A program made the position numbers and the translations under genes. Source: a virus. Taken from it: a stretch of DNA of 60,874 nucleotides. Location of the stretch: IMG/VR virus record IMGVR_UViG_3300045988_147447. One strand, 5' to 3'. This document shows positions 142 through 56,395 of the stretch, piece after piece (position 1 is the stretch's first letter; every line of letters starts with the position of its first letter). The notes under the pieces were generated by a model. That model ran no database searches, had not been told where the DNA came from, and saw only the letters and a program-made list of their open reading frames with translations.

Positions 142-1416
142 GTGAGTATCCCTGGAGTATCCTTAAATTTTTTAATCATTATGGCAACTCTATCACTTAC
201 CATTTTCAAGGCAAAAGCATTAAAAGACGGAAGACATAAGATAAGAATTGCACTCCGTCACAAGCATGAAACAACATATATCGTCACACGATTCATTATT
301 TCAGAGAACCAGTTTAAGAACGGTCAGGTCGTGAAGCATCCAGAGGCATCTGCGATAAACCGGAAACTTAGGAACATCCTTGATGACCTTCAAGAGAAAC
401 TGGACTCAATAAAACATCTTGAACTTTATTCCTGCCGGCAAATTAAAGAAATCATTTCTACAGACAATCTTTCCGATGAGCAAACCTTTTCATCAGCATG
501 TAGCAATTTTGTAGACTATCTCAAGTCTGAGGGAAGAGATTCATACGCATTATCTATTGAAAGGGTGGGGAGATATTTTCGTGACTTTGCAAGAGGTGAC
601 ATACTTCTCTCTGATTTAACCCCGTCACTAGTCCAGAATTTTGCCGCATTCATACGGAAGCGGAAAGTGACTGAAACTACAGTAAACACAATGCTTGCCC
701 AAATGAAATCTGTCGTCAATAGAGCGATAAGAGAGTGGAATATATCTTACGATATACATCCTTTTGTAACGACTAGAATATCTGCAGCCCCTATCAGGAA
801 GCTTGATCTGACAGTACAGAATTTTAACAAGATTCGTGAATCTTCACCAGAAAAGAGAAAGCTGATTATGGCACGTGACCTTTTTTGCCTTTCCTTTTAC
901 TTGGGAGGGATGAATCTTATAGACATTATGCAAACAGACTTTAGAAAAGATGTATTGGAATATTCACGCTCAAAGACTAAAGGGCGAATGCAGTCGGATA
1001 GTGTAATCACATTTACAATACCGTCTCAAGCAAGAGAGATAATATGCAGGTGGATGGATAAAAGGACGGGGAAACTTGATTTTGGGTATAAATTCACATA
1101 TCACAACTTTTCTCAGTATGTTACGTATTCTCTTGGAGATTTGGCTGAAGAGTTAAATATTGATGAACGTGTTACATTTTATTCGGCCCGCAAGTCTTTC
1201 GCTCAGTACGCCTCTGAAATAGGTATTCCTGACGGGATAATAGACTACTGCTTAGGCCACTCAGACAAATCAAAAGGAGTTATACGATACTACACCAAAG
1301 TCCGGCAGAAACAGGCTGATATGGCCATATCTCGTGTGATTGATTACGTGAACAACCCGGAAAAGTACAAAGAATATATCGAACTGAGGTCTGATATTAT
1401 GATGATGAGAGGGTAA
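142..1416 (+). CDS. int: tyrosine-type phage integrase
   Basis: 424 aa next to attL. C-terminal catalytic region reads ARDLFCLSFYLGG ... YSARKSFAQYA ... LGHSDKSKGVIRYY (R..R..H..Y pattern). GTG start. Confidence 0.85.
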   Translation: MSIPGVSLNFLIIMATLSLTIFKAKALKDGRHKIRIALRHKHETTYIVTRFIISENQFKNGQVVKHPEASAINRKLRNILDDLQEKLDSIKHLELYSCRQIKEIISTDNLSDEQTFSSACSNFVDYLKSEGRDSYALSIERVGRYFRDFARGDILLSDLTPSLVQNFAAFIRKRKVTETTVNTMLAQMKSVVNRAIREWNISYDIHPFVTTRISAAPIRKLDLTVQNFNKIRESSPEKRKLIMARDLFCLSFYLGGMNLIDIMQTDFRKDVLEYSRSKTKGRMQSDSVITFTIPSQAREIICRWMDKRTGKLDFGYKFTYHNFSQYVTYSLGDLAEELNIDERVTFYSARKSFAQYASEIGIPDGIIDYCLGHSDKSKGVIRYYTKVRQKQADMAISRVIDYVNNPEKYKEYIELRSDIMMMRG

Positions 1417-8395: not shown

Positions 8396-8413
8396 CTTAC
8401 TAAGGTTTTAGAT

Positions 8414-8467
8414 TAAACAAAAAATGCCCATAAGCGCATCCCAACTTAATGGAACACGCTCATGGGC
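8414..8467 (-). terminator. rho-independent terminator closing the tail/shufflon transcript
   Basis: On the minus strand, GCCCATGAGCG...CGCTTATGGGC is followed by ATTTTTTGTTT (plus-strand stem arms 8426-8436 and 8457-8467). Confidence 0.55.
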
Positions 8468-8589
8468 GTAACTACTATTTCACACACAAAACTACTCATT
8501 TACCATCCTTTTTCAGCGAAGGTAAATGATATAAAAACGAACAAAGAATAAAAGGTTTCAAATCGACTGACACGCCTTGTCAGTAAGTT

Positions 8590-8645
8590 GGTAGAAGCCG
8601 GGTAGAATAAGCAAGCTAGTTACTATTTTCTACCCAATTTCTACC
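8590..8645. repeat. phased inverted repeat GGTAGAA-N4-GGTAGAA-N20-TTCTACC-N4-TTCTACC
   Basis: GGTAGAA at 8590-8596 and 8601-8607. Its complement TTCTACC is at 8628-8634 and 8639-8645. Spacing is 11 bp on each side. Confidence 0.6.
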
Positions 8646-8704
8646 ACTCAAATAATTTTCAATACAGCTTTCTTTATTTCAGTTGTTTTCATTCATACCC
8701 ATAA

Positions 8705-8992
8705 GTCCTGGCGGAACTTATTGGAACGGCTACTTTAAAAAATGATGGATTAATGTCAAAATCAGGTTTCCTGAGTGCTATTGGATTAAATTTGGAAGGT
8801 GATGCCAATACCGTAAATAACGGAGTTTATAAATTTGACTCACAACAGGACAATATGCCCGTGAATTATGGCATATTAGTTGCATTTTCTTGTGACGGAT
8901 GGATTCGTATGCAATTATGTGCAGGTGGAGATAATGGATTAGCATATATAAGAATGCATTATAATAGTTGGACATCATGGAAACAACTATAA
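8705..8992 (+). other. silent C-terminal cassette A of the tail-protein shufflon
   Basis: The frame opens right after TAA at 8702-8704 and starts V-LAELIG at site S1. It is in frame with track ORF 8753..8992 and ends ...MHYNSWTSWKQL. Confidence 0.65.
8708..8724 (+). repeat. shufflon crossover site S1 (ctggcggaacttattgg)
   Basis: Matches the 17-bp core CTGGCGGRACTKATKGG, in plus orientation. Confidence 0.7.
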
Positions 8993-9313
8993 TATTAATT
9001 TCCGAAGAGAATACTTCAGCTCGACAGAAGATACATTCCCAGTCTTATATGTAATTTTATATTTGTCAGTACCGGTTCTGGATACCTCTAGCGTAACATT
9101 ACTTGTGTAGCTATATTCAGATATTTTAGTTATACCAGCAGCATATACGGATGCCCATGCTAATATGTACGTAGCTAGATACTCCGTATTACTAGCACTA
9201 GCACGAATTGAAAGTAAATATATACTTGCCGTGTTAGTTTCTCCTATTTCAACGGATTCCCCAACTTGAAGTATTGTTGTTACCGTGCTATTAATCCCAA
9301 TAAGTCCCGCCAG
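8987..9313 (-). other. silent C-terminal cassette B of the shufflon (no start codon, absent from the ORF track)
   Basis: My translation from 9313 gives LAGLIGINSTVTTILQVGESVEIGETNTASIYLLSIRASASNTEY...SSVELKYSLRKLIL*. That is 108 sense codons. A TAA lies immediately 5-prime of the site. Confidence 0.65.
9291..9313 (-). repeat. shufflon crossover site S2 (23 bp identical to 9962-9984)
   Basis: ttaatcccaataagtcccgccag. The core 9297-9313 is the reverse complement of ctggcgggacttattgg. Confidence 0.7.
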
Positions 9314-9325
9314 GCAGATTTAGCA

Positions 9326-9342
9326 CTGGCGGAACTGATGGG
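9326..9342 (+). repeat. shufflon crossover site S3 (ctggcggaactgatggg)
   Basis: Lies 12 bp from S2 in the opposite orientation. Confidence 0.7.
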
Positions 9343-9688
9343 AGCGGTTCTACTGAAAGGAGTTACAAAAAGTGACTTGGATAATGGGCTTACCAGCCCA
9401 TCGCGCATGATTGTAATGTTTGTGTCAGGGTATATCAATCAAATAACCCCAACCGCCAATTACATATCAGGATATGCAGTAAGATACACATCTCTTAACA
9501 CAGAAATGCAGGTTGTTGTCGATTATGCAGGTAAATTATATTCGAGAACAAAGAACTTATCGGATGGCTCATGGACAGTGTCTACAGCTAGTTATAACTT
9601 ATATGCATATATTATTAGCTCTTCGTTTACTCTATCTATTGTTAAAGGACAAGATGGCAACGGGCTTATTAAAATCAATAGGGCCTAA
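9326..9688 (+). other. silent C-terminal cassette C of the shufflon
   Basis: Frame LAELMGAVLLKGVTKSDLDNG...IKINRA*. The track ORF 9266..9688 is this frame extended to a TTG with no plausible expression signal. Confidence 0.6.
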
Positions 9689-9717
9689 TATTATAATCGA
9701 GTCCATTTAAACTATGA

Positions 9718-10263
9718 TTAAAATTCTCTCCACTCTCCCCATGAATTACCACCATTAGAAGACATACGGGTAAACCGTTTATTGTCATATATGGACATTG
9801 CTATTTGCGTGTGATATTCACCTTGACTGAAATATAATAAATTCCCATAAGTGAATAAATCGAAGTTAATAGTTCCTAGAGATATATTAATCATATATAC
9901 CCTATTATTCAAACAATTATCCGGATTTATGACAATACCACCATCCCTGAACCAAGTATTGTTAATCCCAATAAGTCCCGCCAGAACTGACGCAACCTGC
10001 TCTTTTGTCATTACTCCGACGGCATTTCCGGCGGCATTCACGGCCACAAAACTGGAGATGTCTTCCAAAGCTGGGAGAGCCAGTGTAGACTTCTTCAAAA
10101 GTTCCGTTTTCGACACCTTATGCGGCACGCCGTTTGTATCGTACACCTGTACCGTTTCACCATCTTCTTCCGTTGTCTGATTCTTCATACTTTCTGTATG
10201 TTTCAATAGATTGTCAGTTTCTTCACCTGTAAAGCTTAATACAAAATCTTCTTCTGCTGCCAT
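9718..10263 (-). CDS. tail-associated protein with a switchable C-terminal domain (constant part 9985-10263, expressed cassette D 9718-9984)
   Basis: 181-aa ORF two genes downstream of the Tal-like gene. It contains site S4 at residues LAGLIG. Confidence 0.6.
   Translation of the reverse strand: MAAEEDFVLSFTGEETDNLLKHTESMKNQTTEEDGETVQVYDTNGVPHKVSKTELLKKSTLALPALEDISSFVAVNAAGNAVGVMTKEQVASVLAGLIGINNTWFRDGGIVINPDNCLNNRVYMINISLGTINFDLFTYGNLLYFSQGEYHTQIAMSIYDNKRFTRMSSNGGNSWGEWREF
9962..9984 (-). repeat. shufflon crossover site S4, inside the expressed gene
   Basis: ttaatcccaataagtcccgccag, encoding LAGLIGIN of ORF 9718..10263. Confidence 0.7.
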
Positions 10264-10316
10264 AATTGTTTTTAATTTATAGTTATTAATGATATTACCA
10301 ACATTGTATATTATAA

Positions 10317-10577
10317 TTATCTCATTGCATCATTAAGCCCAGCAAGAAACCATGGAAGAAGCGACGCTGCATGATGTCTTACCCTGTTAACTTCATCATC
10401 TGAAAATTCGGTATCGTCATCGCTGGAAAAAATTTTCTCAGCCAATTTTAAATCAGCAATACCAACTCCTGTCACATTGAAAATGTTATCTGCAAACATT
10501 TCTCTGACATCAATCTCCACGAAATCGGATTTATCTATCTTCGTGTACTTCTTAAATTTCTTAAAATCTATTTTCAT
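10317..10577 (-). CDS. hypothetical protein
   Basis: 86-aa acidic ORF 3 bp after the Tal-like gene. Confidence 0.5.
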   Translation of the reverse strand: MKIDFKKFKKYTKIDKSDFVEIDVREMFADNIFNVTGVGIADLKLAEKIFSSDDDTEFSDDEVNRVRHHAASLLPWFLAGLNDAMR

Positions 10578-10579
10578 GA

Positions 10580-13500
10580 TTAATCGACTAAAATTCCATT
10601 TTCAAAAACCAGTTTATACGTTGAAGGTATCGAACCATTCTGTATAGTCCATGATATTGTTCTCGTTGCTCCTTTTTTGTATGTATATGATCCATCGGCT
10701 TGCAATGACCATCCGGTACCGAACTCATTAGACAATATCGTATTGGTATAAAGATTTCCGTTTACATGTACTCCTCCGTCAAAATATCCGGCATAAGTAT
10801 TAGAACTATGTGGCTTGCTAGTACCGTTCCTTGAAGCATAGATGCATGCTCCACCGTCATTGCTTCCAATTACTTTAACCCCAAATTTCCCGTCAGTCGC
10901 ACCATTGAAATTTATGTCAATCATACCACTGTTATCATCCGTAGGAACACCAATCCGTATACTCCTGCTATCATTGCCGAAAAAATCCCTTCCCTTCCAA
11001 TTCAAGGAACCGTTGTCTATAGTGAAACCTCCAATCTTAGCACCATCGGCAGATATTGTTCCGGAAAAAGTACCTTTAGCGGCTTTCAGTTCACCCGAAA
11101 ATGTACCGTCCGCACCATCCAGATGTTTCACTTTTAACGAGTTTACATCTATGCACTCTGTAAGAAGAAGTGGTTTCCCATTTTTAACCGTAAACACGGC
11201 TATTCCTTTCCCTTCAGAACTTTTAATTTTAAACTTATCTGAAGAAATAACAATCTCATTTTTTTCGATGTCAATACCCGTAGCACCAAGTTTAATTGAG
11301 ATATTTTTCTCTGCTACATCTACAACGCTTTCACCATTTGACAACAATATTCTTGCTGCACGTACCTCTATTTCTCCAGAAGCAAGTCTGATATAATTTG
11401 TCTTGTCCCTATTACCGATATATGTCTTTCCATAAACATTAAAGTATCCTTCTTTAGTTAGACGATCATATCCGATTGAAACTATATCTTTCCCTGAGAG
11501 GGAGTAAGAACTTATCCCCTGATAGAAGGTAAGAGAAGGCGCACCGTCTCCGTATGCAGACAACACGATTGCAGCCTGATAGTCCGGGTCGGCTATGTCT
11601 CCAAGTTGTACCATCACGTCACCCACTTTGGGTATATCGCTTCCTTCGTCACAATGATTCACGGATACATCTATCCAGTTATCACCAACATTTTCCACCA
11701 GACGCCACCAATAGTGATTGGATACGCCGTCATACGCGCCTTCCTTAATATTAAAGGACTGTGAGCGTACTAAATTCCCTGGCTTAAAACGATTTTCTAT
11801 GGCTTTCTCACCATCATCTGCAAGGAAGTAACAGCGATAAACAGAACCATAAGTTCCAGGAGATGAGTAACCTCTTTTCCCGTCTGAGAACTTGACTCCT
11901 TTACCATCCTTGAAACGAATTCCTTTTTTTTCTATAAACTCGACCTTAGTAATCGTTGCTCTGGCCCCGCTGGCGTTGAACATGAAGGAAGCTCCGGCCA
12001 GCTCGGTCTCCATTATTGAAAGTAACTGGAAGATAGCTTTCTTGCGCACGTACAGTTTGTCAATCCATCCGACAGACTCGCCGCCCTTTTCTGAAGAGAA
12101 TGACATACCAGCACCCATCATACCGGTCACGAAGTCAATTGATTCCAGGAAAGGAGATATGATACCGCCAAGAAGCTTAATGAGATAGTTTGTCTGGTCT
12201 TCCTTGTCCTTTCTCAATAATGTTGCAAGTGACCGTTTTGCCGAAAATACGTTACTGTCCGATGGGGCAGTAGAATCATTGGTCTTAATCACATATATGC
12301 TACTACCTCCGCCTCCAACATAAGTATGCCCTTTATACGTAATCGACTCCAGTTTCTCTTCCACATCATTAAGGCGAGAGTAGGGCATACTTTCCCCAAT
12401 AGTATATACCGGAGAATCCCATGGAATGTCAAGGTTAAACTCCCATCCGAGAACACGGCTTTCACGGCCATTCTCAAAAAAGGCTTTATTGACCAGGTTT
12501 ATCTTTTGCCCGAACTCGAAAAAGCGTTTCAGCTTGTCTTCATTAACCCATTCTGACCGGAGGGTAGTGTAGTATGTACCATCGTCCTTTTTTCGCTGGT
12601 CTGCTATCTTCTGTGCCTTCTCTTTCAGTTCCTGCTCCGCGTCCGGAATCATTTGTACAGAAACAAACTTTGGATCAAAACCGGAAAGGATATACTTGTC
12701 ATCATTTTCAGGATATATGGTATCATCCGGCAATGGACGTCCGTAGTCTTCGCTGCGGACAATTTCCCAAAGCTGGCTTCCGTTGTTGTCCGGGTCAAAA
12801 ATAACACCGAACTCCAATCCATTCATTTTGCCGGACTGAAAGATAATTGTCAGCTCTTGTCCCGGAAGTATGTAGTCCTTGGAGAAATTCAGGCCAGTAT
12901 CACGATAGCGATAGTAAGTCACGGTTTCCTGACCTCCGTCTTCATTTGTAACGGTTTCCGTCCTCGTAGATACACTTGACATCGTACTTTCAAGTCGGGG
13001 ATATACCTCGTCAAATACCACGATGTCTTCAATTGCTTCTTCCTGGCTCATGTCAGGATACACATCTATGTATGGCGTACCAGCGGGAAGCATAAGTCGT
13101 CTTTGCACAACTCCGTTTACTACCGTCTGCTCTTCAATGGAACGGTAGTTCTCAGGTATGTTTCTTGTAGATCCGAATGCATAAATGCGGGTGGCATAAG
13201 TGCCTTTGCTCTCACTGCGAGTCATGGCAGACGCTTCAACCCCTAACTCGATTTTCACGGCATCACCGAATTCGTTTCGCCCAAAATGAATTACGTTGTC
13301 CGTTATCCAGCAATCACAGTTCCACTTATCCTCACCCGCCATTGAGAATAAGGCATCCAGCAGGTTCATATTGTCATACGTCATTGCAACTGCCTTATTC
13401 TCTACTGTTGAATCTATTTCAAATACGAATTCTTTTCCCTTATAGGTATATCCCAAAGCTTTCAGGTTACGTAAGAACACACCAAGCTGTACATCAAGGG

Positions 13501-13888
13501 CTGCGGTGAGAGACCATGACGCTTCATATCCAGCATGTTCAGGAGTGTATTTGAAAATTTTGTTTTTCCACTTCCAGTAGTAAGCATCCAGTTTCAGCTC
13601 ATAATCATATCCAGCGGTAGAAGCATTGAAAGAAGGTTTCTGCAAGTCAGTTACCTCATATACTTTTGAAAGTAATCCGCCCAGAGAATCATCCAGAACC
13701 CCAGAAAGGTCTACATAGTCACCAAGTTTAAAATATATAGGTTCAGGCACGGAAAAGGGGAGAACGATGTAGTCCTCTTTCATCAGTGTAAACTTTCCCT
13801 TCGCCCCTTTGTTGATAGGGGTAGAGAACCTTGTTTTTCCGGATATGTCCTTAATTTCAATCATATCCCCAAAGTTCATAAATAACAA
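10580..13888 (-). CDS. tail tip / Tal-like baseplate protein
   Basis: 1102 aa, third gene after the tape measure (TMP-Dit-Tal order of siphophages). The N-terminus resembles the prophage-tail endopeptidase-type fold only by position and size. Confidence 0.6.
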   Translation of the reverse strand: MLFMNFGDMIEIKDISGKTRFSTPINKGAKGKFTLMKEDYIVLPFSVPEPIYFKLGDYVDLSGVLDDSLGGLLSKVYEVTDLQKPSFNASTAGYDYELKLDAYYWKWKNKIFKYTPEHAGYEASWSLTAALDVQLGVFLRNLKALGYTYKGKEFVFEIDSTVENKAVAMTYDNMNLLDALFSMAGEDKWNCDCWITDNVIHFGRNEFGDAVKIELGVEASAMTRSESKGTYATRIYAFGSTRNIPENYRSIEEQTVVNGVVQRRLMLPAGTPYIDVYPDMSQEEAIEDIVVFDEVYPRLESTMSSVSTRTETVTNEDGGQETVTYYRYRDTGLNFSKDYILPGQELTIIFQSGKMNGLEFGVIFDPDNNGSQLWEIVRSEDYGRPLPDDTIYPENDDKYILSGFDPKFVSVQMIPDAEQELKEKAQKIADQRKKDDGTYYTTLRSEWVNEDKLKRFFEFGQKINLVNKAFFENGRESRVLGWEFNLDIPWDSPVYTIGESMPYSRLNDVEEKLESITYKGHTYVGGGGSSIYVIKTNDSTAPSDSNVFSAKRSLATLLRKDKEDQTNYLIKLLGGIISPFLESIDFVTGMMGAGMSFSSEKGGESVGWIDKLYVRKKAIFQLLSIMETELAGASFMFNASGARATITKVEFIEKKGIRFKDGKGVKFSDGKRGYSSPGTYGSVYRCYFLADDGEKAIENRFKPGNLVRSQSFNIKEGAYDGVSNHYWWRLVENVGDNWIDVSVNHCDEGSDIPKVGDVMVQLGDIADPDYQAAIVLSAYGDGAPSLTFYQGISSYSLSGKDIVSIGYDRLTKEGYFNVYGKTYIGNRDKTNYIRLASGEIEVRAARILLSNGESVVDVAEKNISIKLGATGIDIEKNEIVISSDKFKIKSSEGKGIAVFTVKNGKPLLLTECIDVNSLKVKHLDGADGTFSGELKAAKGTFSGTISADGAKIGGFTIDNGSLNWKGRDFFGNDSRSIRIGVPTDDNSGMIDINFNGATDGKFGVKVIGSNDGGACIYASRNGTSKPHSSNTYAGYFDGGVHVNGNLYTNTILSNEFGTGWSLQADGSYTYKKGATRTISWTIQNGSIPSTYKLVFENGILVD

Positions 13889-13941: not shown

Positions 13942-14364
13942 TTATTCGCTTCTGTCCATGGGATTCGGTTCGCAAAACTTACTTGAAACCTTACCGAAAC
14001 ACCTGTCAATACTTAACCCGTAAGAGATGCTTTTCCCCAGGTAAACCAGCTTGAAGACTTCGCTCCCAAGAGCGGGGATTTTGATGTTTACGGCTCCCTT
14101 CTCCAGTTCTGACTGAAAGGCTTTCTTCTTTGTCCGATAGTCACCTTCTGAGTCTCCTTCTATGGTGAACTGGAGAGTGATTTCACGCGATGCTACTTTT
14201 GCATTGTCGGTTATTATTCGCTTCCCGTGCTCCAGACGGCTCTCATCTTCGATGTAGTCTTTCATCTGGTTGAATCCGTCGATAGCATCGAGAAAACTGT
14301 CACCCATGCGGACACCCCATGTGCTCCAGGCATCCTTCCCGTTAATAAATAAATCTCCTGTCAT
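13942..14364 (-). CDS. distal tail protein (Dit) candidate
   Basis: 140 aa. The start overlaps the tape-measure stop by 4 nt. The N-terminus LFINGKDAWSTWGV is typical of phage tail-family proteins. Confidence 0.5.
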   Translation of the reverse strand: MTGDLFINGKDAWSTWGVRMGDSFLDAIDGFNQMKDYIEDESRLEHGKRIITDNAKVASREITLQFTIEGDSEGDYRTKKKAFQSELEKGAVNIKIPALGSEVFKLVYLGKSISYGLSIDRCFGKVSSKFCEPNPMDRSE

Positions 14365-17300
14365 AGTCTTGCTGTATTACGTTTCACTTCGGCAATGTCG
14401 GCCTGCATCTGTTTGATAGGTTTGACAATTTCGCCTGTGTTCTCTCTGATTTGCTGTAACTCCAAATAGGAATTGGCCAGGATAGTACGTGTCTCGTCGG
14501 CAATGTTGTACAGACCGGTCACTTGTGATGTCAGGGAGCCGATGGAACCTCGCAGTTCGGTAATAGCTACCGTTTGCTGCTGTTCTGCCGTCTCAATACG
14601 AAGATTGGACTCATACACGGCTGTAAACCGCCCACTCAGTTCCCCGGCATCCTCGTGCGTCATTTCTGTACCGAATCCGCGGCTGGAGGCCGACTGCTTG
14701 GAACTGCTGCCAGCCTTGTCGTATCCGGTAGCTGCGGCAAGTTCATCCCGTAGTTTCAATGCTTCATTCACGTACCCCATATATTCGTTTTGGAGTGAAT
14801 TACGTTCACTCTCACTCAGGTTTCCGTCCTTCATACTTTCACCGAATCTGTTCCACCAGTCTTCCAGCTTCTGGCTGTACATGTTACCGATTTTATCTGA
14901 AAGCATGGCACGCATAAAGTATTCTGATAGGTTATCCGCAAAATCTTCCGCCGATGCATCCATATCCATAAGGGTATCGATGAAACTATCATACATGGAA
15001 TCAAAACTTATTCCGGTAAGCTGTTCGAAAAGTCCCTCTTTCAGTCCTTCGAGGTTTCCGGCCAGATCTGCATATTCATCTAGTGCATCAACGACAGCAT
15101 TTCCATAGCCTCCTTTTCCTGAATCGGCCATTTTCTGCCACAAGTCTACATTCTGACGTAATAAGTCCATCTGCTCCGGCGACATCTGCCACAAGGAATC
15201 TGTACCTGTGAATTCTGCCATGACATTTTCTCGAATCCATTGTATGTCACTTTCCGACCAGCCCATGTAATAGGCCCAGCTATGATGCTTACTGTGATAG
15301 CCAGCATTTGCCTGCGCTTTTGCAAGGACATTCTTGTTGTATTCCTCCTGATACTTGATGGCTTTATTGTACTCTGCTACGGATTTCTCGCTTCCCTTGC
15401 TGGACTTCATTTCTTCCGTAAGGGATTCGATGGCAGACTGCAACTTTTCGTTTCTGTCCGTGAGTCTGTTGATGGTATCCTGCACCTCTTTTTCGTTTCC
15501 TCCAATACCGAAAAGTTTGCTGAATCCGCCGAAAGTCAAAGTATCCCATATTCCACCTACAGACTTAAAGACACTACTGAATATGTTACCTACGAAACCA
15601 TCCAGCCCCTGTGTCCCGATAGCATCTAAAAGAGAAAATGCAGCTCCAATTATACCTCCAAGTTTCTCGCTCTCTTCTGCAAATATGTCTACTATATTTC
15701 CGGCCAAATCACCGACCTGAGAGAGTGAAATTTCAGAATTTGAACCAAGCTGGGTAATGACGTTCGACAATGTGACAAGGTTGCTTGTCGTTTTATCTGT
15801 CGACTTTTGTACATTGACCTGAGCGTTCTGCTGTCTTTTTTGGGCATCATTCAGTTTCTTCGTGGCCGCTTCCTTCTGCTCATCTGTTCCGCTTCTCATG
15901 GCTTCGTTGTATTCCTCCTGAGCTTGTGACAGTTCTTCCTGTGCCTTGGCTAATTCGCTTAACTGTTTGGGTAGGTCGGCCAGCAATCCTCCTTTGTCGA
16001 TAAGGGTTGACTGGATGTTGCTTAAAGCCTCGTCAATGACCTTCTTCTGGTCAACAGCCATATTCTTGTATTCTTCGGAGTTCTTGAAGTCCCTAAGCTG
16101 CTGCTTTACCTTGTTCAGGGACTTTTTGGATACCTTGTCCAAGTCACCGAAGATAAGTTCCCAGTTGATTCCCTGTTTCAGCTTCTCAAGATCAAGGGAG
16201 GAGAGTGCCTTATCCATTTCTTTCTGGAGTATGTCCTTGTCTCCCTGGGTAGTGGCTTCCGAGATTTTACGGGTGTACTCGGCTATGATTGCATCACGTT
16301 TCTGCATGAACGTACCGTAGCTTTTCAGGTAACGTTCGTTGGCCTCGATTGCAGCTTGATTTTCAGTTTCTGTAATTTCGGCCAGACCTTTTTCACGCGA
16401 CGTCATGGCATTAGACGCACGACTTCCTAATACTTCCCGCTGTTCAGACGTAAGCTTTCCTCCTTGCGCATCTTCCCATTTTTTGCGCTGTTTCCTAATT
16501 TCATCGATTTCTCGCTGGTAATCCAGCTCAATCTGTCTGCGCTTCTTTTCAGAACCTTCTTCCATCAGGTTGATTTCTTCCTGCTGATTTGTTCTGCGAA
16601 GCTGAAGGAGTTCTTCTGCAACCTGTTGCTGCTCTTTCTTTTGTCGCTCGGCATCTTTCTTCGCATTATTCTCTTGTTTGGCCAGAGTGTCTCCTGTTAC
16701 ACCACCGAGCGATTTATATGATTTTTCTGCTGCTTCCAACTCTTCTACAGCTTTCTTATAAGCAGATTCAGTGCCTTTTTTAGCATCCTCTACGGCCTTT
16801 AATTTTGCTTCGTAAACAGCTTTTGCTTCTTTATATGCTTGCTGATACGTCTTTTCCGATGCTTCTCTTTGCGATTCCAGGCCAGATATGGTGCCGTCAA
16901 TCCCTTTTAACGCTGCTTGCGCATTATTGAACCGTATTTGAACGTCAATAGGAATTGTTGCAAAAGGAAAATTCTTAATTTTTTCTTGCTCTTCCTGCAA
17001 TATTTGTCTTGCTATATTGTATTCGCGTATAATCTGCTCACGATTACTTCTTGCTTCCATCAGCTTGACTTCAACAGGTTTCGAGTTTTCCTCTGTTTCC
17101 TTTTTCAGTCGATTATATTCGCTCAAGGCTGATTTCCACTTGTTAAGATTTGCTTTTGCTGATTCTATTTGTGAAGCGATTAATGGGGCACCTTGTCCCG
17201 CATTTTTTAAAGAAGCATTTAATGATTTTATTTTCTCCTCCCATTGTTGAATATTCTTTAGTATGTTTTCATAACTGTTCTTGTCTCGTTCCTTATTCAG

Positions 17301-19013
17301 TTCTTTATTTGCTTCTGCAAGATTGAGTACAGCCAGTTGTTCACGGGTATAAGCAGAAGAAAGTGCAGGAGAATACCTTTGTAGTTCCTCATAGGCCTTT
17401 ATCTTTGAAAACTCGGTTTCTGTCTCATCTTGGATAACGCGTATCAGCTCTTCTATTTTTTTCTTGCGTTCCTCTTCCTGATTCGCAAAATTCTTTTGTT
17501 CTTCATTGAATTTTTGCTGTGCCTTTTCCGATGCGGTTGTGCTGTCATGAAAGGCCCACATAGTAGCAACAAGCCCGGCAAGAACCGTAGCTGCCAGTAC
17601 ATACGGGTTAGCTTTCATAACCGTATTCAAAGCCTTTTGTGCTATCATTTGAGCTTTGGTAACCAAGATTGCAAGTTCCATTCTGGCCGTTAATGTATCC
17701 TGAGCTATTCGCACAACAATAAGAGCGGTTTTATATGTCCCGTATGTAGCAATCAGTCCTATCAAAATCTTACCAACAGTTTCATAGTTCTCAATAAGAC
17801 CTTTCAATCCTGAAATACCTGCAGAAGCAATTCCCTGAGTATCTTTCCCAATCTCATTCAACATTGTATCCCAAGCATCTCCAAGGTTACTCAACTGACC
17901 TGTAAGAGACTTAGACTGTTCTTGCATCAGGTTATAATAGATTCCTGATTCACTAGTCATATTTTTGAAGGCCTGTTCTACTTCTTTAAATCCTACCTTG
18001 CCTTCCTTTACTAAACCGGAAACTTCATCTTTTGTCACACCAAGCACTTTTGCCAGTTCCTCGTAGATGGGAATACCACGTCCTGCAAACTGACGAATAT
18101 CGACAGCATAGGCCCTTCCTTGTGTCCTTAATGTGCCATAGAGATAGGCTATTTCACTAAGCTGGGAGCCAACACCGGCGGCTACATTACCAAGCATGAC
18201 AAGTTCATCACCCACATTCTCAGCTGACGAGCCGTAAGCAATCATTTGCTTGGCAGATGATGCCACCCCTTGAAGGTCGAAGGGTGTCTTTGCGGCAATA
18301 TCCACCAGCTCTGACATCAGTTTATCTGCTTTTTCCTTACTTTTCAGCATGGTTGAAAAAGCAATTTCAAGCTGCTGGAATTGTCCTCGTACATTAACAA
18401 GTTCTGTAACAAAGTTTTTCAAGGCAGTTACTCCACCTATTATACCAAGTACTTTGGTTAAGGAAACGGACATCTTTTCATTTGCTTCGACCGTTTCGCC
18501 GGCTTCTTCCTTAAAAGCTGCATATTCATCCTTCAGTCTCTTTACTGAAAGACGGGCTTCTGCCTGCTGTTGAGTAAGTCCAAACAAAATATCTTTCTGC
18601 TCCCTTAACTTATCGGTTTGAGCTTTTATCTGCTCCGACATACCGCTGGTATTACCACCCGACTTTACAGTTTCTCGGTATTTCTCTTTCAATAAAGTAA
18701 GCTCATTTTGTAATTGCCTAATGACACCCCTTTGTGAAGTAATATTTGCAGAGAGGTTGTTTACTGTTTGTGAAGCGCTGTAAATTCCATTTTTGAAATC
18801 ACGCTCCATTGTAGCTCCAACTTTAGCCGCCTCGGTTACCAGCCCCATCATTTGTTGGCGAGCAGATGCCAATTGGGTTTCCAAAGCCCTTGCCGCTGCC
18901 GGAGATTTGTTCACGTCCATCTTTTTGAGTTGGGCTTCCAGCTTTTCACATTCTTGTCTTAGCTTTACGACCTGTTCCCAGTCACTTGATACACGGAATA
19001 CGAGTGTTGCCAT
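14361..19013 (-). CDS. tail tape measure protein
   Basis: 1550 aa with long coiled-coil stretches and internal TM helices. Core motif reads LGNVAAGVGSQLSEIAYLYGTLRTQGRAYAVDIRQFAGRGIPIYEELAKVLG (TP901-type TMP core). Confidence 0.9.
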   Translation of the reverse strand: MATLVFRVSSDWEQVVKLRQECEKLEAQLKKMDVNKSPAAARALETQLASARQQMMGLVTEAAKVGATMERDFKNGIYSASQTVNNLSANITSQRGVIRQLQNELTLLKEKYRETVKSGGNTSGMSEQIKAQTDKLREQKDILFGLTQQQAEARLSVKRLKDEYAAFKEEAGETVEANEKMSVSLTKVLGIIGGVTALKNFVTELVNVRGQFQQLEIAFSTMLKSKEKADKLMSELVDIAAKTPFDLQGVASSAKQMIAYGSSAENVGDELVMLGNVAAGVGSQLSEIAYLYGTLRTQGRAYAVDIRQFAGRGIPIYEELAKVLGVTKDEVSGLVKEGKVGFKEVEQAFKNMTSESGIYYNLMQEQSKSLTGQLSNLGDAWDTMLNEIGKDTQGIASAGISGLKGLIENYETVGKILIGLIATYGTYKTALIVVRIAQDTLTARMELAILVTKAQMIAQKALNTVMKANPYVLAATVLAGLVATMWAFHDSTTASEKAQQKFNEEQKNFANQEEERKKKIEELIRVIQDETETEFSKIKAYEELQRYSPALSSAYTREQLAVLNLAEANKELNKERDKNSYENILKNIQQWEEKIKSLNASLKNAGQGAPLIASQIESAKANLNKWKSALSEYNRLKKETEENSKPVEVKLMEARSNREQIIREYNIARQILQEEQEKIKNFPFATIPIDVQIRFNNAQAALKGIDGTISGLESQREASEKTYQQAYKEAKAVYEAKLKAVEDAKKGTESAYKKAVEELEAAEKSYKSLGGVTGDTLAKQENNAKKDAERQKKEQQQVAEELLQLRRTNQQEEINLMEEGSEKKRRQIELDYQREIDEIRKQRKKWEDAQGGKLTSEQREVLGSRASNAMTSREKGLAEITETENQAAIEANERYLKSYGTFMQKRDAIIAEYTRKISEATTQGDKDILQKEMDKALSSLDLEKLKQGINWELIFGDLDKVSKKSLNKVKQQLRDFKNSEEYKNMAVDQKKVIDEALSNIQSTLIDKGGLLADLPKQLSELAKAQEELSQAQEEYNEAMRSGTDEQKEAATKKLNDAQKRQQNAQVNVQKSTDKTTSNLVTLSNVITQLGSNSEISLSQVGDLAGNIVDIFAEESEKLGGIIGAAFSLLDAIGTQGLDGFVGNIFSSVFKSVGGIWDTLTFGGFSKLFGIGGNEKEVQDTINRLTDRNEKLQSAIESLTEEMKSSKGSEKSVAEYNKAIKYQEEYNKNVLAKAQANAGYHSKHHSWAYYMGWSESDIQWIRENVMAEFTGTDSLWQMSPEQMDLLRQNVDLWQKMADSGKGGYGNAVVDALDEYADLAGNLEGLKEGLFEQLTGISFDSMYDSFIDTLMDMDASAEDFADNLSEYFMRAMLSDKIGNMYSQKLEDWWNRFGESMKDGNLSESERNSLQNEYMGYVNEALKLRDELAAATGYDKAGSSSKQSASSRGFGTEMTHEDAGELSGRFTAVYESNLRIETAEQQQTVAITELRGSIGSLTSQVTGLYNIADETRTILANSYLELQQIRENTGEIVKPIKQMQADIAEVKRNTARL

Positions 19014-34528: not shown

Positions 34529-35374
34529 ATGAAGAAAATGTTATTTATACTGCCTATACTAGTGGCTTTGTTTTTTGTAGGGTGCAGTAGCGATGGTGAT
34601 GGAGAGCCCGGAGGAAATAGTGGAAATAAAGTTCTGTCTGAAATTGTAATAAACGAACACGAAAAGAAATTTGGCGAGATAAATGAATATGGAGAACTAT
34701 ACGAACAGTATATCTATAATCCAGACGGAACATTGCAAGAAAAAACCACCAATTACTATAATGCTTTATTGGATGATAGGATTGATTACAATTACAAATA
34801 TGAATACGACGACAAAAAGCGTGTAGTGGAAATGAACGAATATACGTTTACTTTGTTTGAAAAAAAACGTAAATATGAATATAACAACATTGATTCCGTG
34901 TCACGCATGTTGGTATATGATGACGATGGAGACCTGAATGAAGAATGGACATACGAATATGATAGTCAAAAAAGATTGATAAAAACAGTAGAAAAAGACA
35001 TTTGGGTTAGTAAAAATTTTGGCTATATAAGCGAATATAGATACGAAGGGAATAACGCTTATATAGAAAAGACAATGCTTAATGACGGTTCTTTGTTCGG
35101 GAACTTTATCTTTGAGTACGACACACATGGAAATCTACTACAAGAAACATATATCAACGGAGATACAGGGAGAGAATCATTAGAGCAAAAATATGAATAC
35201 CAATATGACTCTTCAGGTCGTATTCAAAGAAAATCTAAAAAGGAATCATATTCAGATTCTTGGACATATTATGACTACTTTTATAATGAAGATGGTACAA
35301 TAAATAAAATTTCCGTATCATATAGTTTTAAGAATGATGAATCCGAACTAAGATATAACTATATTTGGAAATAA
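34529..35374 (+). CDS. lipoprotein with YD/RHS-like repeats
   Basis: Signal plus lipobox LFFVGC. Repeated units are YEYDDKKRVVE, YEYDSQKRLIK, FEYDTHGNLLQE and YQYDSSGRIQRK. Confidence 0.6.
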   Translation: MKKMLFILPILVALFFVGCSSDGDGEPGGNSGNKVLSEIVINEHEKKFGEINEYGELYEQYIYNPDGTLQEKTTNYYNALLDDRIDYNYKYEYDDKKRVVEMNEYTFTLFEKKRKYEYNNIDSVSRMLVYDDDGDLNEEWTYEYDSQKRLIKTVEKDIWVSKNFGYISEYRYEGNNAYIEKTMLNDGSLFGNFIFEYDTHGNLLQETYINGDTGRESLEQKYEYQYDSSGRIQRKSKKESYSDSWTYYDYFYNEDGTINKISVSYSFKNDESELRYNYIWK

Positions 35375-35489
35375 CTATTCCATTATGCTTTACAGTTTTT
35401 GGGAGCATAAAAATCTGTCACTTGATAAATTCAATGCTTTATTGTATCTTTGTAGATTAAAATAAAATTCTAGTATAATTAATACGATT

Positions 35490-36551
35490 ATGAAACTGAA
35501 AAGTCTCGAATATGTTACACCTGGATGGTCTTTAGATGGTCTCAATTTGTCAGAAACAAGTCTCATCGTAGGCCGTAATGCTGTTGGAAAATCAAAAACA
35601 ATAGAAGCCTTAAATTCTTTAGTCTCTGTTATACTCCAAACTAAAGAAATTGCTGAGCACGATAATTTTTTCTATAAAATTATTTTTTCAGACAATGATA
35701 CAGAATTGACATATTCATTTGCATGTTTTCAAGGGAATATTACCTTGGAACAGCTAATTGATCATAACGAAAACATCTTAATAGAAAGGAATGAAAACTC
35801 TACTATCTTTTTTAACGACGAAATTAACCCTCCAAGTAATAAACTTACAATCAATGTAAGACGAGATACAAAATTATATCCTCAAATTGAAAAAATAGTA
35901 AATTGGGCTGAAAATTCATATGGGATATTATTTAATCAGATTAATATGTTTCCTAATGGTACCAACCTATTTAGTACTATGTCTAAAGGAGAAAGTATTA
36001 TCCCAATGTTTGAAAAATTAAATGATGATTTGAAACTAAAGGTTCAGGAGGAACTAAATGCTTTAGATTATTCTATTGACGAAATAAAGATTGTAAAAAT
36101 TGGAGATGAGAAATCTGATATAAGAGTCTTACAGATTAATGAAAAAGATGTAAGCACATTTTTATGGGAAGGATTGTTATCTCAAGGAATGCAAAGAACA
36201 CTATACATTCTTGTTCTTTTATTCTATATTGTTTCTCAAAAAAAGAAGACACAGACAATTGTTATTGATGATTTTTGTGAGGGATTAGATTATGATAGAT
36301 CCATAAAATTAGGTAAATACCTATATAAATTCTGTTTAGAAAATAATATACAATTAATTACTACTTCAAACGATAGTTTTTTAATGGACGTTGTCGATTT
36401 GAAATATTGGAATATTTTACAACGTAAAGGCGATAAAGTTACTGCAATAAATATATATAATTCTCCTGAATTATTTGAAGATTTTGAATTTACAGGACTT
36501 AATAATTTTGATTTATTCTCATCTGATTTTATTGCACGACATAAAAAATGA
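35490..36551 (+). CDS. ABC/SMC-type (AAA_21-like) ATPase
   Basis: Walker A VGRNAVGKSKT, signature-like LSQGMQR, Walker B/D-loop TIVIDDFCEGLD. Confidence 0.7.
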   Translation: MKLKSLEYVTPGWSLDGLNLSETSLIVGRNAVGKSKTIEALNSLVSVILQTKEIAEHDNFFYKIIFSDNDTELTYSFACFQGNITLEQLIDHNENILIERNENSTIFFNDEINPPSNKLTINVRRDTKLYPQIEKIVNWAENSYGILFNQINMFPNGTNLFSTMSKGESIIPMFEKLNDDLKLKVQEELNALDYSIDEIKIVKIGDEKSDIRVLQINEKDVSTFLWEGLLSQGMQRTLYILVLLFYIVSQKKKTQTIVIDDFCEGLDYDRSIKLGKYLYKFCLENNIQLITTSNDSFLMDVVDLKYWNILQRKGDKVTAINIYNSPELFEDFEFTGLNNFDLFSSDFIARHKK

Positions 36552-37270
36552 AGAAAGTAGCAGTTTTTGTAGAAGGACAAGCTGAATTAATTTTGGTCAG
36601 AGAATTACTTCTAAAGATGTACGACTACCAAGATATAGGAATCAATTGTTATAACCTGATTTGTGATAATCTGGATGAAGCTCCTTATCAATATGGTGAT
36701 AAAATGGCTCATAACTATTATATGCTTGTAAATGTTGGTAATGACAACTCTGTATTATCTAAAATCTTTACTAGAGCAAATGGATTGCATGAAAAGGGAT
36801 TTACCAAGATTATAGGGTTAAGAGATGTATATGGGGACTTTTACAAGAAAAAAAATAGAGGCGTAAGAAATATAAACTTAGAATTAATTGAAAAATTTAG
36901 AAATTCAGCTCAAAAGGAAATAGACGCTAAAAACCTGGCTCAATATATAAAATTACATTTTGCAATAATGGAGGTTGAAGCATGGTTTTTAGGATTTAAC
37001 ATATTTGAACGTATTGATGGCACATTGTCAAATGATTTTATTAAGTCTAAGCTAAATTATGATTTGGAGAATGATGATCCAGAGATTACCTATTATCATC
37101 CAGCAAGAATTATGGGAGATATTTATGGCCTGATTGGATCAAAATATGACAAACATGAAAGTGATGTATCCTCCCTTGTGAGTTGTCTTGAAAAAGAAGA
37201 TTATAATAACTTAATAGAAAGTGTTAAATGCTCAACATTTACATCTTTCGTTCAAGAATTGCTAAATTGA
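36548..37270 (+). CDS. TOPRIM/OLD-like nuclease candidate (DUF4276/DUF4435-like)
   Basis: The N-terminus VAVFVEGQAELILVREL carries a TOPRIM-type glutamate strand. Later motifs are IIGLRDVYGD and MEVEAWFLG. ATGA overlap with the ATPase gene. Confidence 0.5.
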   Translation: MKKVAVFVEGQAELILVRELLLKMYDYQDIGINCYNLICDNLDEAPYQYGDKMAHNYYMLVNVGNDNSVLSKIFTRANGLHEKGFTKIIGLRDVYGDFYKKKNRGVRNINLELIEKFRNSAQKEIDAKNLAQYIKLHFAIMEVEAWFLGFNIFERIDGTLSNDFIKSKLNYDLENDDPEITYYHPARIMGDIYGLIGSKYDKHESDVSSLVSCLEKEDYNNLIESVKCSTFTSFVQELLN

Positions 37271-44287: not shown

Positions 44288-45316
44288 TCACTTATTAATT
44301 ACTATTGCTATAGTTTTAGTTCCAGTTCCGCTTTCCTTGAAAGTGCCTTCTTCAATCTCGAATTTCTTCCCTCCATTATCCTCCAGCCATTGTCTAAAAT
44401 CCTTACACTCAGATTCACTTCCAAATTCCCAGTGAGGACCAGTTATTGCAGCCAGGACACCGCCGGGATTTAAACACTCATACATACGCCTTACATGCCG
44501 AATGTCCTGATTTTTACTGAATGGTGGATTTGCTATAATCTTATCATACTGTGCAATATCACACTTCGTGAAGTCATCTCCAAGAATACGTATATTATCC
44601 TTTTTCGATAGAATTTCTTTATTCTCAGGCATAAGTTCATAGCAATCTACAATTACGTCCGGACAGCTTCGATGAATCGCATCTATGATAGCACCAGTAC
44701 CAGCACTGGGTTCCAGAACCTTTTCATCATCGTGCACACCACCGGCCAACATAACCAGCCAGTCGGCTACTTCTGGAGGTGTTGCAAAAAACTGGAAGTC
44801 CTGCTGTAAATTGCACCGCTTACCTTCATGAAGAATATTGAATACTCGTTCTGCATTAAATGGAAATGTAAATCCTTGCACCTTGCCACCCATCCAGCTA
44901 CCTCCGGCTTCTTCAATCCATTTTTTAGCTTCTGCGTATGATTTCTTATTAAATTGTACTTGAGGAAGTTTCATCACATTATTTTCAAGCGTACAATGTT
45001 TAAGAATATCCTCAACACTCCATTTACTTCCAGAATCATCCTTATTGCGCTTGTTGTTCTGCTCCAGTTCGTCACACCCCAACAGACGGTTCAACGACTT
45101 CTGTACTTTCACACTTATTTCTGCCATCCTTGACATCCATTGCAGGATTGCAGTCATAAACTCCAAATCCACATGTCCGGTCTCATCGTAAATGTTTTCC
45201 CGGTCTATCAATTCCGGAAGGTTATCCATGAACATGAAGCTACCATACAACGCTTCGATTAAATTCTTTTTTTTGTTCGTCATAACTTTTCTGTAAATAA
45301 ATTCTTGTCGTATCAA
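44288..45316 (-). CDS. N6-adenine DNA methyltransferase (start probably at Met 45235, just after the recombinase stop)
   Basis: Motif I LEPSAGTGAIID and motif IV IIANPPFSKN. Confidence 0.8.
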   Translation of the reverse strand: MIRQEFIYRKVMTNKKKNLIEALYGSFMFMDNLPELIDRENIYDETGHVDLEFMTAILQWMSRMAEISVKVQKSLNRLLGCDELEQNNKRNKDDSGSKWSVEDILKHCTLENNVMKLPQVQFNKKSYAEAKKWIEEAGGSWMGGKVQGFTFPFNAERVFNILHEGKRCNLQQDFQFFATPPEVADWLVMLAGGVHDDEKVLEPSAGTGAIIDAIHRSCPDVIVDCYELMPENKEILSKKDNIRILGDDFTKCDIAQYDKIIANPPFSKNQDIRHVRRMYECLNPGGVLAAITGPHWEFGSESECKDFRQWLEDNGGKKFEIEEGTFKESGTGTKTIAIVINK

Positions 45317-46352
45317 TACTTCCGTGTCCTAAAAGGTCTGCCAACTGTACCACGTCATTGTTCTTTTTCAGATACATTTTAGCGAAGAAATGCCGAAAAG
45401 CATGAGGATGCATCTTGCTTCTATCTATTCCGCACTTATCGCCCCAGTCTTTCATTGATTGGCACAAGCTTCTCTGTGTCAACCTTCCGCACTTACCTAC
45501 TGCGACATATCCAGTCTTGTGACTCTCCTTTACGTATGCTTTTACTTCCGCCTGTAACTGCCTGCTGAAAAAGAATCTCCGGTACTTGTTTCCCTTTCCC
45601 TTTAGAGTGACTTCACCGGAAAGGATGTCCTCCCATTTGAATTGGAAGAACTCGCTTACCCTCGCCCCGGTTGTAGCCAGTATCTTGATGAAGAAGTACC
45701 TGTCCCTGTTAGGACAAGTTTTCAAATACTCAAGCAGCCGGTTGTATTCGGCTTCTGTCGGAACATTCTCCGTATTCAACTCCTTCTTGAACTTCGGGCG
45801 CTTCAACTCTATTGGCTTTTTCATCCATTTGCTGAAACGTTCAAGTGCGGTAATTCGTAGGCGTATTGTTCTGGGAGACAATCCCTCATCCTCCAGCATC
45901 CGTACAAAACGCTTGTAATTGTCAACTGATACCTCGTTGGCGTATTCGAAATATTTCTTAATTGAAAATGAATATATTTCAAGAGTGTGTGGAGAGTAAT
46001 CTTCATCCTGCGTAAGGTAATACACAAATTCATTCATCAGTTTCATGTTCTTTTCAGAAACATCGCTTAGCTTCTCCAGAGGTTTAACTGATTTCTCCTT
46101 TCGTGTGCGTGAATATCCAATACCAAGAAAATTAAGGAACCCACATAGAGCATCTTTAATGTATGGCTTATCAGATAATTCAACTGCATTTTCTCTGATA
46201 TAAGCCTTGTATCCTTTACGGTTCACCTGATAATCACTTTCAAGGAATAACTTTACAGCTTTAATGCTTTTACCAATAACTTCATAGCTTTTATCGGTAC
46301 TATACAAGTGGGATACGTATTCTATAAATATTTTTTTATTTACGTCTTCCAT
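45240..46352 (-). CDS. second tyrosine recombinase (XerC/D- or Rci-like)
   Basis: SAM-like N-domain (YSPHTLEIYSFSIKKYFEY). Catalytic residues in ATTGARVSEF, HPHAFRHFFA and LLGHGSIDTTRIY. Confidence 0.85.
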   Translation of the reverse strand: MEDVNKKIFIEYVSHLYSTDKSYEVIGKSIKAVKLFLESDYQVNRKGYKAYIRENAVELSDKPYIKDALCGFLNFLGIGYSRTRKEKSVKPLEKLSDVSEKNMKLMNEFVYYLTQDEDYSPHTLEIYSFSIKKYFEYANEVSVDNYKRFVRMLEDEGLSPRTIRLRITALERFSKWMKKPIELKRPKFKKELNTENVPTEAEYNRLLEYLKTCPNRDRYFFIKILATTGARVSEFFQFKWEDILSGEVTLKGKGNKYRRFFFSRQLQAEVKAYVKESHKTGYVAVGKCGRLTQRSLCQSMKDWGDKCGIDRSKMHPHAFRHFFAKMYLKKNNDVVQLADLLGHGSIDTTRIYLQKSYDEQKKEFNRSVVW

Positions 46353-56297: not shown

Positions 56298-56319
56298 AGT
56301 TTAAGTATTTGATTGTTTG

Positions 56320-56395
56320 CTGGCAGAACGGGACTCGAACCCGTGACTTCCATGCTAACCCTTACATGGTGTTCTACCGCCTGAACTATCTGCCA
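56320..56395 (-). tRNA. phage-encoded tRNA with a non-canonical 10-nt (or 6 bp plus 8 nt) anticodon loop; isotype undetermined
   Basis: TGGCAGA-TA-GTTC-AGGCGGTA-GAAC-A-CCATG-TAAGGGTTAG-CATGG-AAGTC-ACGGG-TTCGAGT-CCCGT-TCTGCCA-G. All four stems pair perfectly. Confidence 0.7.

Follow-up and report, generated by a model that had tools for sequence, protein, structure and literature searches.

A multiple-inversion shufflon at the end of a putative tail-fibre gene in a Phocaeicola plebeius-type prophage without an adjacent recombinase gene

How could a single phage gene come to be supplied with four alternative endings, and which enzyme would exchange them? This question is raised by a locus in the IMG/VR virus record IMGVR_UViG_3300045988_147447, a stretch of 60,874 nucleotides (hereafter the window, meaning the whole of it), in which a first-pass annotation made from the letters alone had noticed a shufflon-like system at the end of a tail-associated gene. 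We consider it highly probable that the locus is a multiple-inversion shufflon of a Phocaeicola plebeius-type prophage, driven in trans by a tyrosine recombinase of the kind that we call rec397 (397 amino acids, aa) and serving as a switch of the fibre tip. The gene would consist of a fixed 5′ part (residues 1-93, here K) and four interchangeable 3′ cassettes, of which D would currently be on while C, B and A are silent, and the cassettes would make up two tail-to-tail invertible segments. Each cassette would start with a site composed of an asymmetric 7-bp overlap, CTGGCGG, and a recombinase-binding arm, RACTKAT(KGG), that would also code for the junction peptide L-A-(E/G)-L-(I/M)-G. Recombination between inverted sites would flip one or both segments and bring another cassette into frame, and recombination between direct sites would delete a segment. 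From a lysogen population, virions with differing receptor-binding tips would result. The enzyme would belong to an IntDOT-like family of tyrosine recombinases of about 400 aa and would be supplied in trans, most plausibly by a co-resident related prophage.

The sites themselves are readily confirmed. A scan of the window with the 17-bp core CTGGCGGRACTKATKGG returned the four copies in alternating orientation that had been reported (S1 to S4, Table 1), and no further copy was found there with two mismatches allowed. Four occurrences compare with 0.03 expected by chance, and none of 100 shuffles reached this number. It is also correct that S2 and S4 share 23 identical bp (9291-9313 and 9962-9984), and that S4 lies within the 181-aa open reading frame (ORF) 9718..10263, on the - strand, at residues LAGLIG. 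Translation bore out the stop-free frames of A, B and C as well as the TAA directly before the frames of A and B. The accompanying statement that these sites open frames without a start of their own applies to the 5′ ends of A and B, but the frame of C is open upstream as far as a TTG at 9266 (ORF 9266..9688), and A holds an internal ATG-started ORF, 8753..8992. The TTG-started ORF reaches cassette C by way of the S2 complement and the 12-bp linker, and no evidence of its independent translation was found. The window thus presents one constant 5′ part followed by several promoterless, dissimilar 3′ cassettes. A directional core of the form (C/G)TGGNNG-RACT-KAT stands at every cassette start in alternating orientation, and its RACT arm is common to systems of Bacteroides mediterraneensis and Prevotella.

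The more important question is whether the cassettes are in fact exchanged. The fusion proteins expected from each recombination, with Gly (G) or Glu (E) at the junction, were written out and looked up by exact sequence in public data (L and P numbers are our labels of fetched loci or stretches and of proteins, respectively). The window's own 181-aa protein, K+D (G), was matched exactly in 521 index blocks. Exact matches were also obtained for K+A (E) (P0121, 186 index blocks), K+C (E) (P0137, 82 index blocks), K+D (E) (12 contigs), K+B (G) (P0136, seven contigs, each with the two-cassette array K B> <A) and K+C (G) (two contigs). The exact-sequence look-up did not find K+A (G), K+B (E) or K+C with the junction LAGLIG.

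The order of the cassettes is likewise permuted in nature. When segments of the window were mapped onto the fetched loci, most of them at 100% identity, five arrangement classes emerged (arrowheads give the orientation of each cassette, and F is the flank beyond the last one). The class K D> <C B> <A F has the window's own order. The class K A> <B C> <D F, seen in L010-L014, is the product of S1×S4, and K C> <D B> <A F, of which K C> <D is seen in L019-L023, is the product of S3×S4, whereas K A> <B D> <C F is the double product. Finally, two-cassette forms occur as K D> <C F, K C> <D F and K B> <A F (loci L005, L015, L017-L020 and L051), and their junctions are such as a deletion between direct sites would leave. 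At each junction, CTGGCGG links one of four constant left contexts to one of four that belong to the cassettes, and all breakpoints lie inside the core at this sequence; the K-side left context of S4, GCGTCAGTT, for example, is found joined to A, B, C or D, depending on the contig. Scanning IMG/VR for the K-side junction yielded 74 contigs with at least 15 cassette types in arrays of two, four or six cassettes. Reciprocal states are present among them, such as three contigs with K>A F<H and three with K>H F<A.

We take these comparisons as direct evidence that the core undergoes conservative site-specific recombination, and the junctions indicate that both inversions and apparent deletions occur. 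The exact fusions and the permuted prophages support the central claim of the first-pass annotation, namely that inversion joins the constant 5′ part to one of four 3′ cassettes, and they include the products it had foreseen for S3×S4, which fuses C, and for S1×S4, which fuses A. Of the joint condition that it had named as fatal, one half, homologous prophages always fixed in this arrangement, was looked for by comparison, and the orders proved to be permuted. Its two-step inversion leading to B is only half borne out: the K+B fusion exists, but it was seen in two-cassette forms only and the proposed route was not. Furthermore, its suggestion that the asymmetry of the sites restricts the system to inversions does not agree with the two-cassette forms, which carry deletion-type junctions.

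Some sequences break off close to the junction. Twelve fetched IMG/VR stretches stop less than 100 bp past it and three are hairpin-like, although the ends of stretches may not be the ends of contigs. The 'partial' proteins P0074 and P0115, which carry the NCBI label P. plebeius and are taken to be isolate-derived, stop at VLA or VLAEL. These stretch ends, hairpin-like contigs and partial proteins are hints of mixed states within samples. In seven contigs (L044, L064, L066, L069, L080, L081 and L091), a cassette pair is bounded on either side by the K-side junction, in opposite orientation; three of the seven are perfect hairpins at a contig end, and others fuse two different tail modules head to head. 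Such double-K contigs are likely to be assembly artefacts arising from coexisting orientations or shared cassettes.

Comparison among relatives narrows the conserved part of the site to 14 bp, CTGGCGG plus RACTKAT, and the CTGGCGG spacer is present in 273 of 279 sites. The R base that follows the spacer, and makes the codon one for Gly or Glu, mostly goes with the cassette (59:2 for A, 31:0 for C and 33:1 for E), yet it is exchanged at times in cassettes D (24:13) and B (22:6). Because R tracks the cassette but sometimes swaps, we infer that strand exchange occurs within the 7-bp CTGGCGG, with R at the border of the region that is exchanged. The left contexts vary from site to site whereas the right arm is conserved, and partial mirror arms are present at S1 and S4 only, where an imperfect second arm can be recognized (GACTTATGGG at S1; the reverse complement of AACTGACGC at S4). 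The earlier description of a single conserved arm per site therefore suits both internal sites but not the two outer ones. Other Bacteroidales systems keep the RACT-KAT arm while their overlaps differ (GTGGGAGGACT in B. mediterraneensis, GTGGCGGGACT in Prevotella and CTGGGAGAACT in BV01-like phages). Because the overlap differs among systems while the arm stays, we divide the site into overlap and arm, which would fit the layout usual for tyrosine recombinases, whose arms are bound by the enzyme and whose overlaps need only match between partner sites.

Table 1. Positions in the window of the shufflon, its flanks and the other genes discussed
Feature	Coordinates	Strand	Basis or remarks
Distal flank F, ~120 bp	8586..8707		Sits where sister phages have the 397-aa recombinase gene; no counterpart in L032
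Site S1, distal boundary site	8708..8724	+	Outer arm GACTTATGGG (8698-8707, - strand reading) mirrors the cassette-side arm
Cassette A, silent, knob type related to D	8725..8992	+	Open frame VLAELIGTAT...SWKQL*
Cassette B, silent, in gene-sense orientation	8987..9296	-	Open frame LAGLIGINST...RKLIL*
Site S2	9297..9313	-	Core match and junction comparison
Linker GCAGATTTAGCA, 12 bp	9314..9325		Separates the back-to-back S2 and S3; flips upon inversion of larger segments
Site S3	9326..9342	+	Core match and junction comparison
Cassette C, silent, tail-to-tail with D	9343..9688	+	Open frame LAELMGAV...KINRA*
Cassette D, currently expressed; C-terminal knob ...INNTWFRDGG...NSWGEWREF	9718..9967	-	ORF and segment mapping
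Site S4, expression site	9968..9984	-	Overlap CTGGCGG and arm GACTTATTGG; left arm (reverse complement of AACTGACGC) partly mirrors the right arm
Constant 5′ part K, residues 1-93, ending ...KEQVASV just before the core	9985..10263	-	ORF 9718..10263, 181 aa
Intrinsic terminator closing the shufflon transcription unit	8426..8467	-	18-bp stem 8467->8426, 9 GC pairs, T-run
Upstream tail genes: 1102-aa distal tail protein and 86-aa ORF	10317..13888	-	Same orientation as the shufflon gene; order kept in L001-L023
370-aa XerC/D-like tyrosine recombinase, the candidate of the first-pass annotation	45240..46352	-	Pfam and NCBIfam matches
424-aa Bacteroides-type integrase, presumably the prophage integrase	142..1416	+	Domain architecture as in the shufflon recombinase family

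The identity of the recombinase is best approached through sister copies of the locus. In L032, L057 and L065, where the downstream genes are those of the window (134, 164, 161 and 704 aa), the gene for rec397 starts about 45 bp past the last site. The enzyme has the domains Arm-DNA-bind_5, SAM_5 and Phage_integrase; it is also present in L027, L043, L048 and L050, and one variant occurs on 918 contigs. In a second P. plebeius prophage type, which has the K gene end and cassettes in common, it flanks shuffled arrays of two to six cassettes. A flanking recombinase of about 400 aa is found in the sister loci L032, L057, L065 and L195-L199 and not in the window, where tblastn with rec397 finds only the 424-aa integrase (23% identity over 231 aligned residues).

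Homologues of rec397 adjoin comparable shufflons elsewhere. In B. mediterraneensis and uncultured Bacteroides (L180, L181 and L183) they are 92-94% identical and stand beside shufflons with the core GTGGGAGGACT, and because these systems have so similar a recombinase, a change of overlap seems possible with hardly any change in the enzyme. A homologue with 72% identity over its full length adjoins TGGGAGAACT sites in BV01-like contigs, which were used in place of the Phocaeicola vulgatus genome match L187 (where the recombinase is truncated and the contig ends within the shufflon). One with 54% identity adjoins GTGGCGGGACTTATGCC sites, one forward and three reverse, in a Prevotella metagenome-assembled genome (L186, 3162-5001). 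The rec397 family is thus the likely cognate enzyme of the shufflon. In the window, the DNA read from 8585 to 8396 can be aligned at 82% with the sequence that follows the recombinase gene in L032, and judged from this alignment the window's shufflon has lost the adjacent recombinase gene. Because all arrangement classes share the recombinase-less flank, rearrangement would have continued after the loss and would have been catalysed in trans. Flank F contains an inverted repeat (8589-8607/8628-8646), and it opens with GACTTATGGGTATGAATGAAAAC, which resembles the start of another cassette (type 'LMNGNN') on an inverted overlap. This remnant suggests a past deletion from a larger array.

Two further observations concern recombinases beside the shufflon. 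In L013 (7587-8732, - strand), a different tyrosine recombinase of 381 aa abuts the same shufflon on the opposite strand, and a lysis module of another type follows. The enzyme shares 28% identity with rec397, and within the phage collection it comes closest to the annotated integrase of Bacteroides phage BS-TP2 (30% identity); found beside the shufflon in only one examined locus, it was set aside as a cognate enzyme. In addition, the contigs of L193 (6142-8001) and L194 (7404-8001), 290 kb and 220 kb long, connect the window-type distal flank and lysis/fibre module with rec397, a D12 methyltransferase and host genes, the shared cassettes forming the joint. These contigs are either chimeric assemblies across identical cassettes or the outcome of recombination between two prophages at shufflon sites. 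Whichever the origin, both phage types were therefore present in one sample.

What, then, is being switched? With the 99 N-terminal residues as the query, 141 proteins were retrieved, all of which share the constant part as far as ...VASVLA(G/E)L. The N-terminus is 70-100% conserved among them and is followed by more than ten unrelated or distant tail types, some of them A-like or D-like. In an alignment, cassettes A and D fall together with several others into a single knob family that ends in W-x-x-W, whereas B and C differ, and one homologue is labelled at NCBI as a 'pyocin knob domain-containing protein'. The shufflon protein has 73 representatives among 1.8 billion proteins. Its AlphaFold2 model, computed from a 30-sequence alignment, has a mean predicted local distance difference test score (pLDDT) of 77.9 and exceeds 90 for residues ~110-180, the C-terminal domain; an earlier run with 12 sequences gave 51.5 and was unusable. 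Fourteen matches at E≤1e-3 were obtained in BFVD, and those with names are tail-fibre proteins, whereas a profile search against PDB sequences gave only chance matches to focal adhesion kinase. The model suggests a tail-fibre-like protein with a confidently predicted C-terminal domain, whose fold resembles predicted viral fibres more strongly than it does solved structures. In view of this resemblance to tail-fibre proteins, we regard a role in receptor binding as plausible and, indeed, likely. Switching of cassettes would then be expected to affect host range.

Alternative explanations of the locus deserve consideration. The proposal that the repeats are chance or duplication remnants, and A to C independent small genes or pseudogenes, could draw on the ORFs 8753..8992 (ATG) in A and 9266..9688 (TTG) through C. 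However, no shuffle produces four sites, A and B have stops just before their 5′ ends and no starts there, and the exact fusions and permuted arrangements in hundreds of contigs effectively refute this proposal, to which we assign almost no likelihood. A more serious objection is that the locus might be a frozen relic, in which shuffling ended with the loss of the recombinase gene and the known arrangements reflect older events or exchange between phages. The absence of a recombinase gene in cis would agree with this, as would the dominance of D (521 blocks versus 186, 82 and a few) and the fact that the arrangements are known from different assemblies. Yet all classes carry the same flank F (CCATAAGTC plus ~120 bp) and have mapped segments that are mostly 100% identical, the F|D and F|C junctions need exchange at the core after flank F had formed, and 31 IMG/VR sites with flank F have many different cassettes beside it. 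Heterogeneity is also hinted at by contigs, and by partial proteins from isolates, that end at the junction, and we consider a relic quite improbable. If a shufflon without a recombinase evidently still rearranges, some enzyme must act on it. One could imagine that this is the phage's own 370-aa recombinase, the invertase named by the first-pass annotation, working in cis. The enzyme is complete, with both the SAM-like and the catalytic domain of a tyrosine recombinase; many contigs of the phage group encode it at 99% conservation, and it occurs on at least 10 IMG/VR contigs that also have the K site (best 80 of 152 loci, most on contigs shorter than the 35 kb that separate the recombinase from the sites). 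Apart from this distance, the argument against it is that the gene is always paired with that of a DNA methyltransferase (44288-45316; mad2- or type II methyltransferase-like), the start of which it overlaps. The same pair is found at 63.5% identity in Bacteroides phage BS-TP3, although no homologue of the shufflon gene was found in BS-TP3 or in any of 50,697 phage records. The enzyme would be redundant as an invertase in the contig of L048 and L145, which has both this recombinase and a rec397-type gene adjacent to the shufflon. Its similarity to the 381-aa recombinase of L013 is marginal (E 2e-04 over 37 aa), and a tblastn search of the window with rec397 misses it altogether. Given that sister phages have a dedicated 397-aa enzyme beside the shufflon, the 370-aa recombinase is probably not the invertase, and control in cis seems unlikely to us, though less so than a relic.

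We therefore return to a multiple-inversion shufflon served in trans, for which one specific version can be offered tentatively, with odds somewhat short of even. The window would hold an orphan shufflon that lost its invertase and whose tip is still diversified by the rec397 of the second prophage type, with which it shares the constant end and the pool of cassettes. If true, the shared sites would let the two prophages trade cassettes and recombine, with the hybrid joints of L193 and L194 as examples, and host-range switching of one phage would be conditional on co-lysogeny with another. Several points count against the preferred reading as a whole. All arrangement variation lies between assemblies, and the two-cassette forms could in principle be ancestral instead of deletion products. 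The recombinase is assigned by adjacency and conservation, while a 381-aa recombinase abuts the same shufflon in L013 and the 370-aa and 424-aa recombinases of the window are candidates as well. Concerning the protein, Foldseek matches in the PDB are weak (the best are phi812 baseplate chains and the R2 pyocin fibre, with E 0.02-0.1 and a template modelling score of ~0.35), and no Pfam, PHROG or NCBIfam family matches it, the only signal being a sub-threshold one to Tad_C.

It is useful to compare the locus with systems that are already understood. In the shufflon of R64 and other IncI1 plasmids, the tyrosine recombinase Rci acts at sfx sites in pilV and exchanges tail-to-tail cassettes that encode alternative adhesin C-termini, and this shufflon is described as inversion-only. 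An identical asymmetric spacer and one conserved arm per site, the other arm being poorly conserved, are found in both, which is a likeness of form only. The R64 target is a conjugative pilus adhesin and that of the window a phage fibre; in contrast to Rci, the recombinase family of the window's relatives is IntDOT-like, with no member adjacent in the window, and deletion-type junctions occur among these relatives. The G segment of Mu with Gin, the C segment of P1 with Cin and the Min system of p15B rely on serine recombinases that act at crossover sites with an enhancer, and they change host range. The outcome is the same as that proposed here, in that inversion swaps the C-terminal part of a fibre, but the sites are unrelated and no serine recombinase similarity is seen in the window. 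Specifically, Pfam scans of selected ORFs of the window found recombinases of the tyrosine type only, and tblastn with an approximate Hin query gave no match better than E 0.9. Min is, like the present system, a multi-segment inversion system (cited in PMC6109161).

These three are valid precedents as the first-pass annotation had proposed, but closer ones exist. The Rin shufflon of Bifidobacterium prophages is a multiple-inversion system of phages that uses a tyrosine recombinase; a constant N-terminus of the receptor-binding protein (Rc) is joined to dissimilar C-terminal cassettes (Rv), each preceded by a short asymmetric repeat (PMC6109161). The logic is shared with the window, namely a tyrosine recombinase, the Rc/Rv layout and crossover repeats. 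However, the host phylum is unrelated, as is the 11-bp rix site TTCCCTAACCC to the window core, and the rin gene flanks its cassettes whereas the window has no such gene. Closer still are BV01-like phages of P. vulgatus, whose tail-fibre shufflon has three cassettes that give six variants and whose activity was shown at read level (Research Square preprint, Sept 2026, PMC13596623). The host genus is the same, and in both the distal end of a fibre gene is swapped among cassettes that a short directional motif delimits. The one reported in PMC13596623, TGGGAGAACT(GAT), agrees with the window core CTGGCGGAACT(GAT) at 12 of 14 positions. The cassettes start alike (LGELIGVAT... in BV01-like phages and LAELIGTAT... 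in the window), and the recombinase is the one noted above as 72% identical to rec397 of the sister copies. In its site arm and associated enzyme family, the locus is homologous to the BV01-like system. Differences lie in the overlap (TGGCGG in the window versus TGGGAG), in the constant gene, a 181-aa protein without a DNA or protein match in the phage collection, and in the number of cassettes, four in two segments with no adjacent recombinase rather than three. The distance from the last site to the recombinase is ~45 bp in the sister P. plebeius phages and ~520 bp in BV01-like contigs. What sets it apart from the BV01-like system is the overlap sequence, the target gene, the cassette number and the lack of a recombinase gene. 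Among the targets of inversion, phage tail genes form a recognised class (PMC9881135). Tyrosine-recombinase fibre shufflons having already been described, no new principle is at stake, and the orphan status is the feature worth following.

Even so, there are reasons to pursue this locus. Inversion is a means by which Phocaeicola and Bacteroides alter their surface, and a phage that changes its receptor-binding tip likewise can keep pace with them. The prophage is very common in the human gut, 521 index blocks listing the expressed variant alone. Assemblies reveal directly which of the four states is present, and these states could provide a marker of phage tropism state in metagenomes. The combination of CTGGCGG and RACTKAT with a candidate enzyme family offers a basis for a Bacteroidales-native inversion tool. 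Moreover, the locus is a test case for the dependence of a phage on the recombinase of another prophage.

The surroundings are those of a P. plebeius-type prophage, and homologues of the shufflon protein are labelled Phocaeicola plebeius. On the - strand, the tail module runs from the tape measure gene (14361-19013) through a Dit-like 140-aa protein, the 1102-aa distal tail protein and the 86-aa ORF to the shufflon gene. The terminator noted earlier beside the shufflon was confirmed as an 18-bp stem with a T-run, and after it come a 134-aa membrane protein, a product with weak, sub-threshold similarity to a holin family, a protein of 161 aa and a fibre of 704 aa. Searches of the 50,697 phage records with blastn (8400-10600) and with tblastn (the constant N-terminus) returned nothing useful.

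A few other elements of the window lie apart from the shufflon. ARAGORN predicts a transfer RNA-like gene with a four-base anticodon (gggt) at 56319-56395 on the - strand, which may be related to the prophage attachment site. Two low-GC islands (0.29-0.33) on the + strand, at 34529-37270 and 40229-41722, lie inside the prophage; one has an AbiLi/HEC-01A-like ATPase with a HEC-01B-like partner and the other an ORF with weak similarity to KAP NTPases, and both are probably defence cargo. A putative AbiC-like gene (1919-2998) adjoins the integrase end, and an NsnA/PD-T4-2_A-like gene (E 2e-70) is located at 58678-59739, in the low-GC right end of the window.

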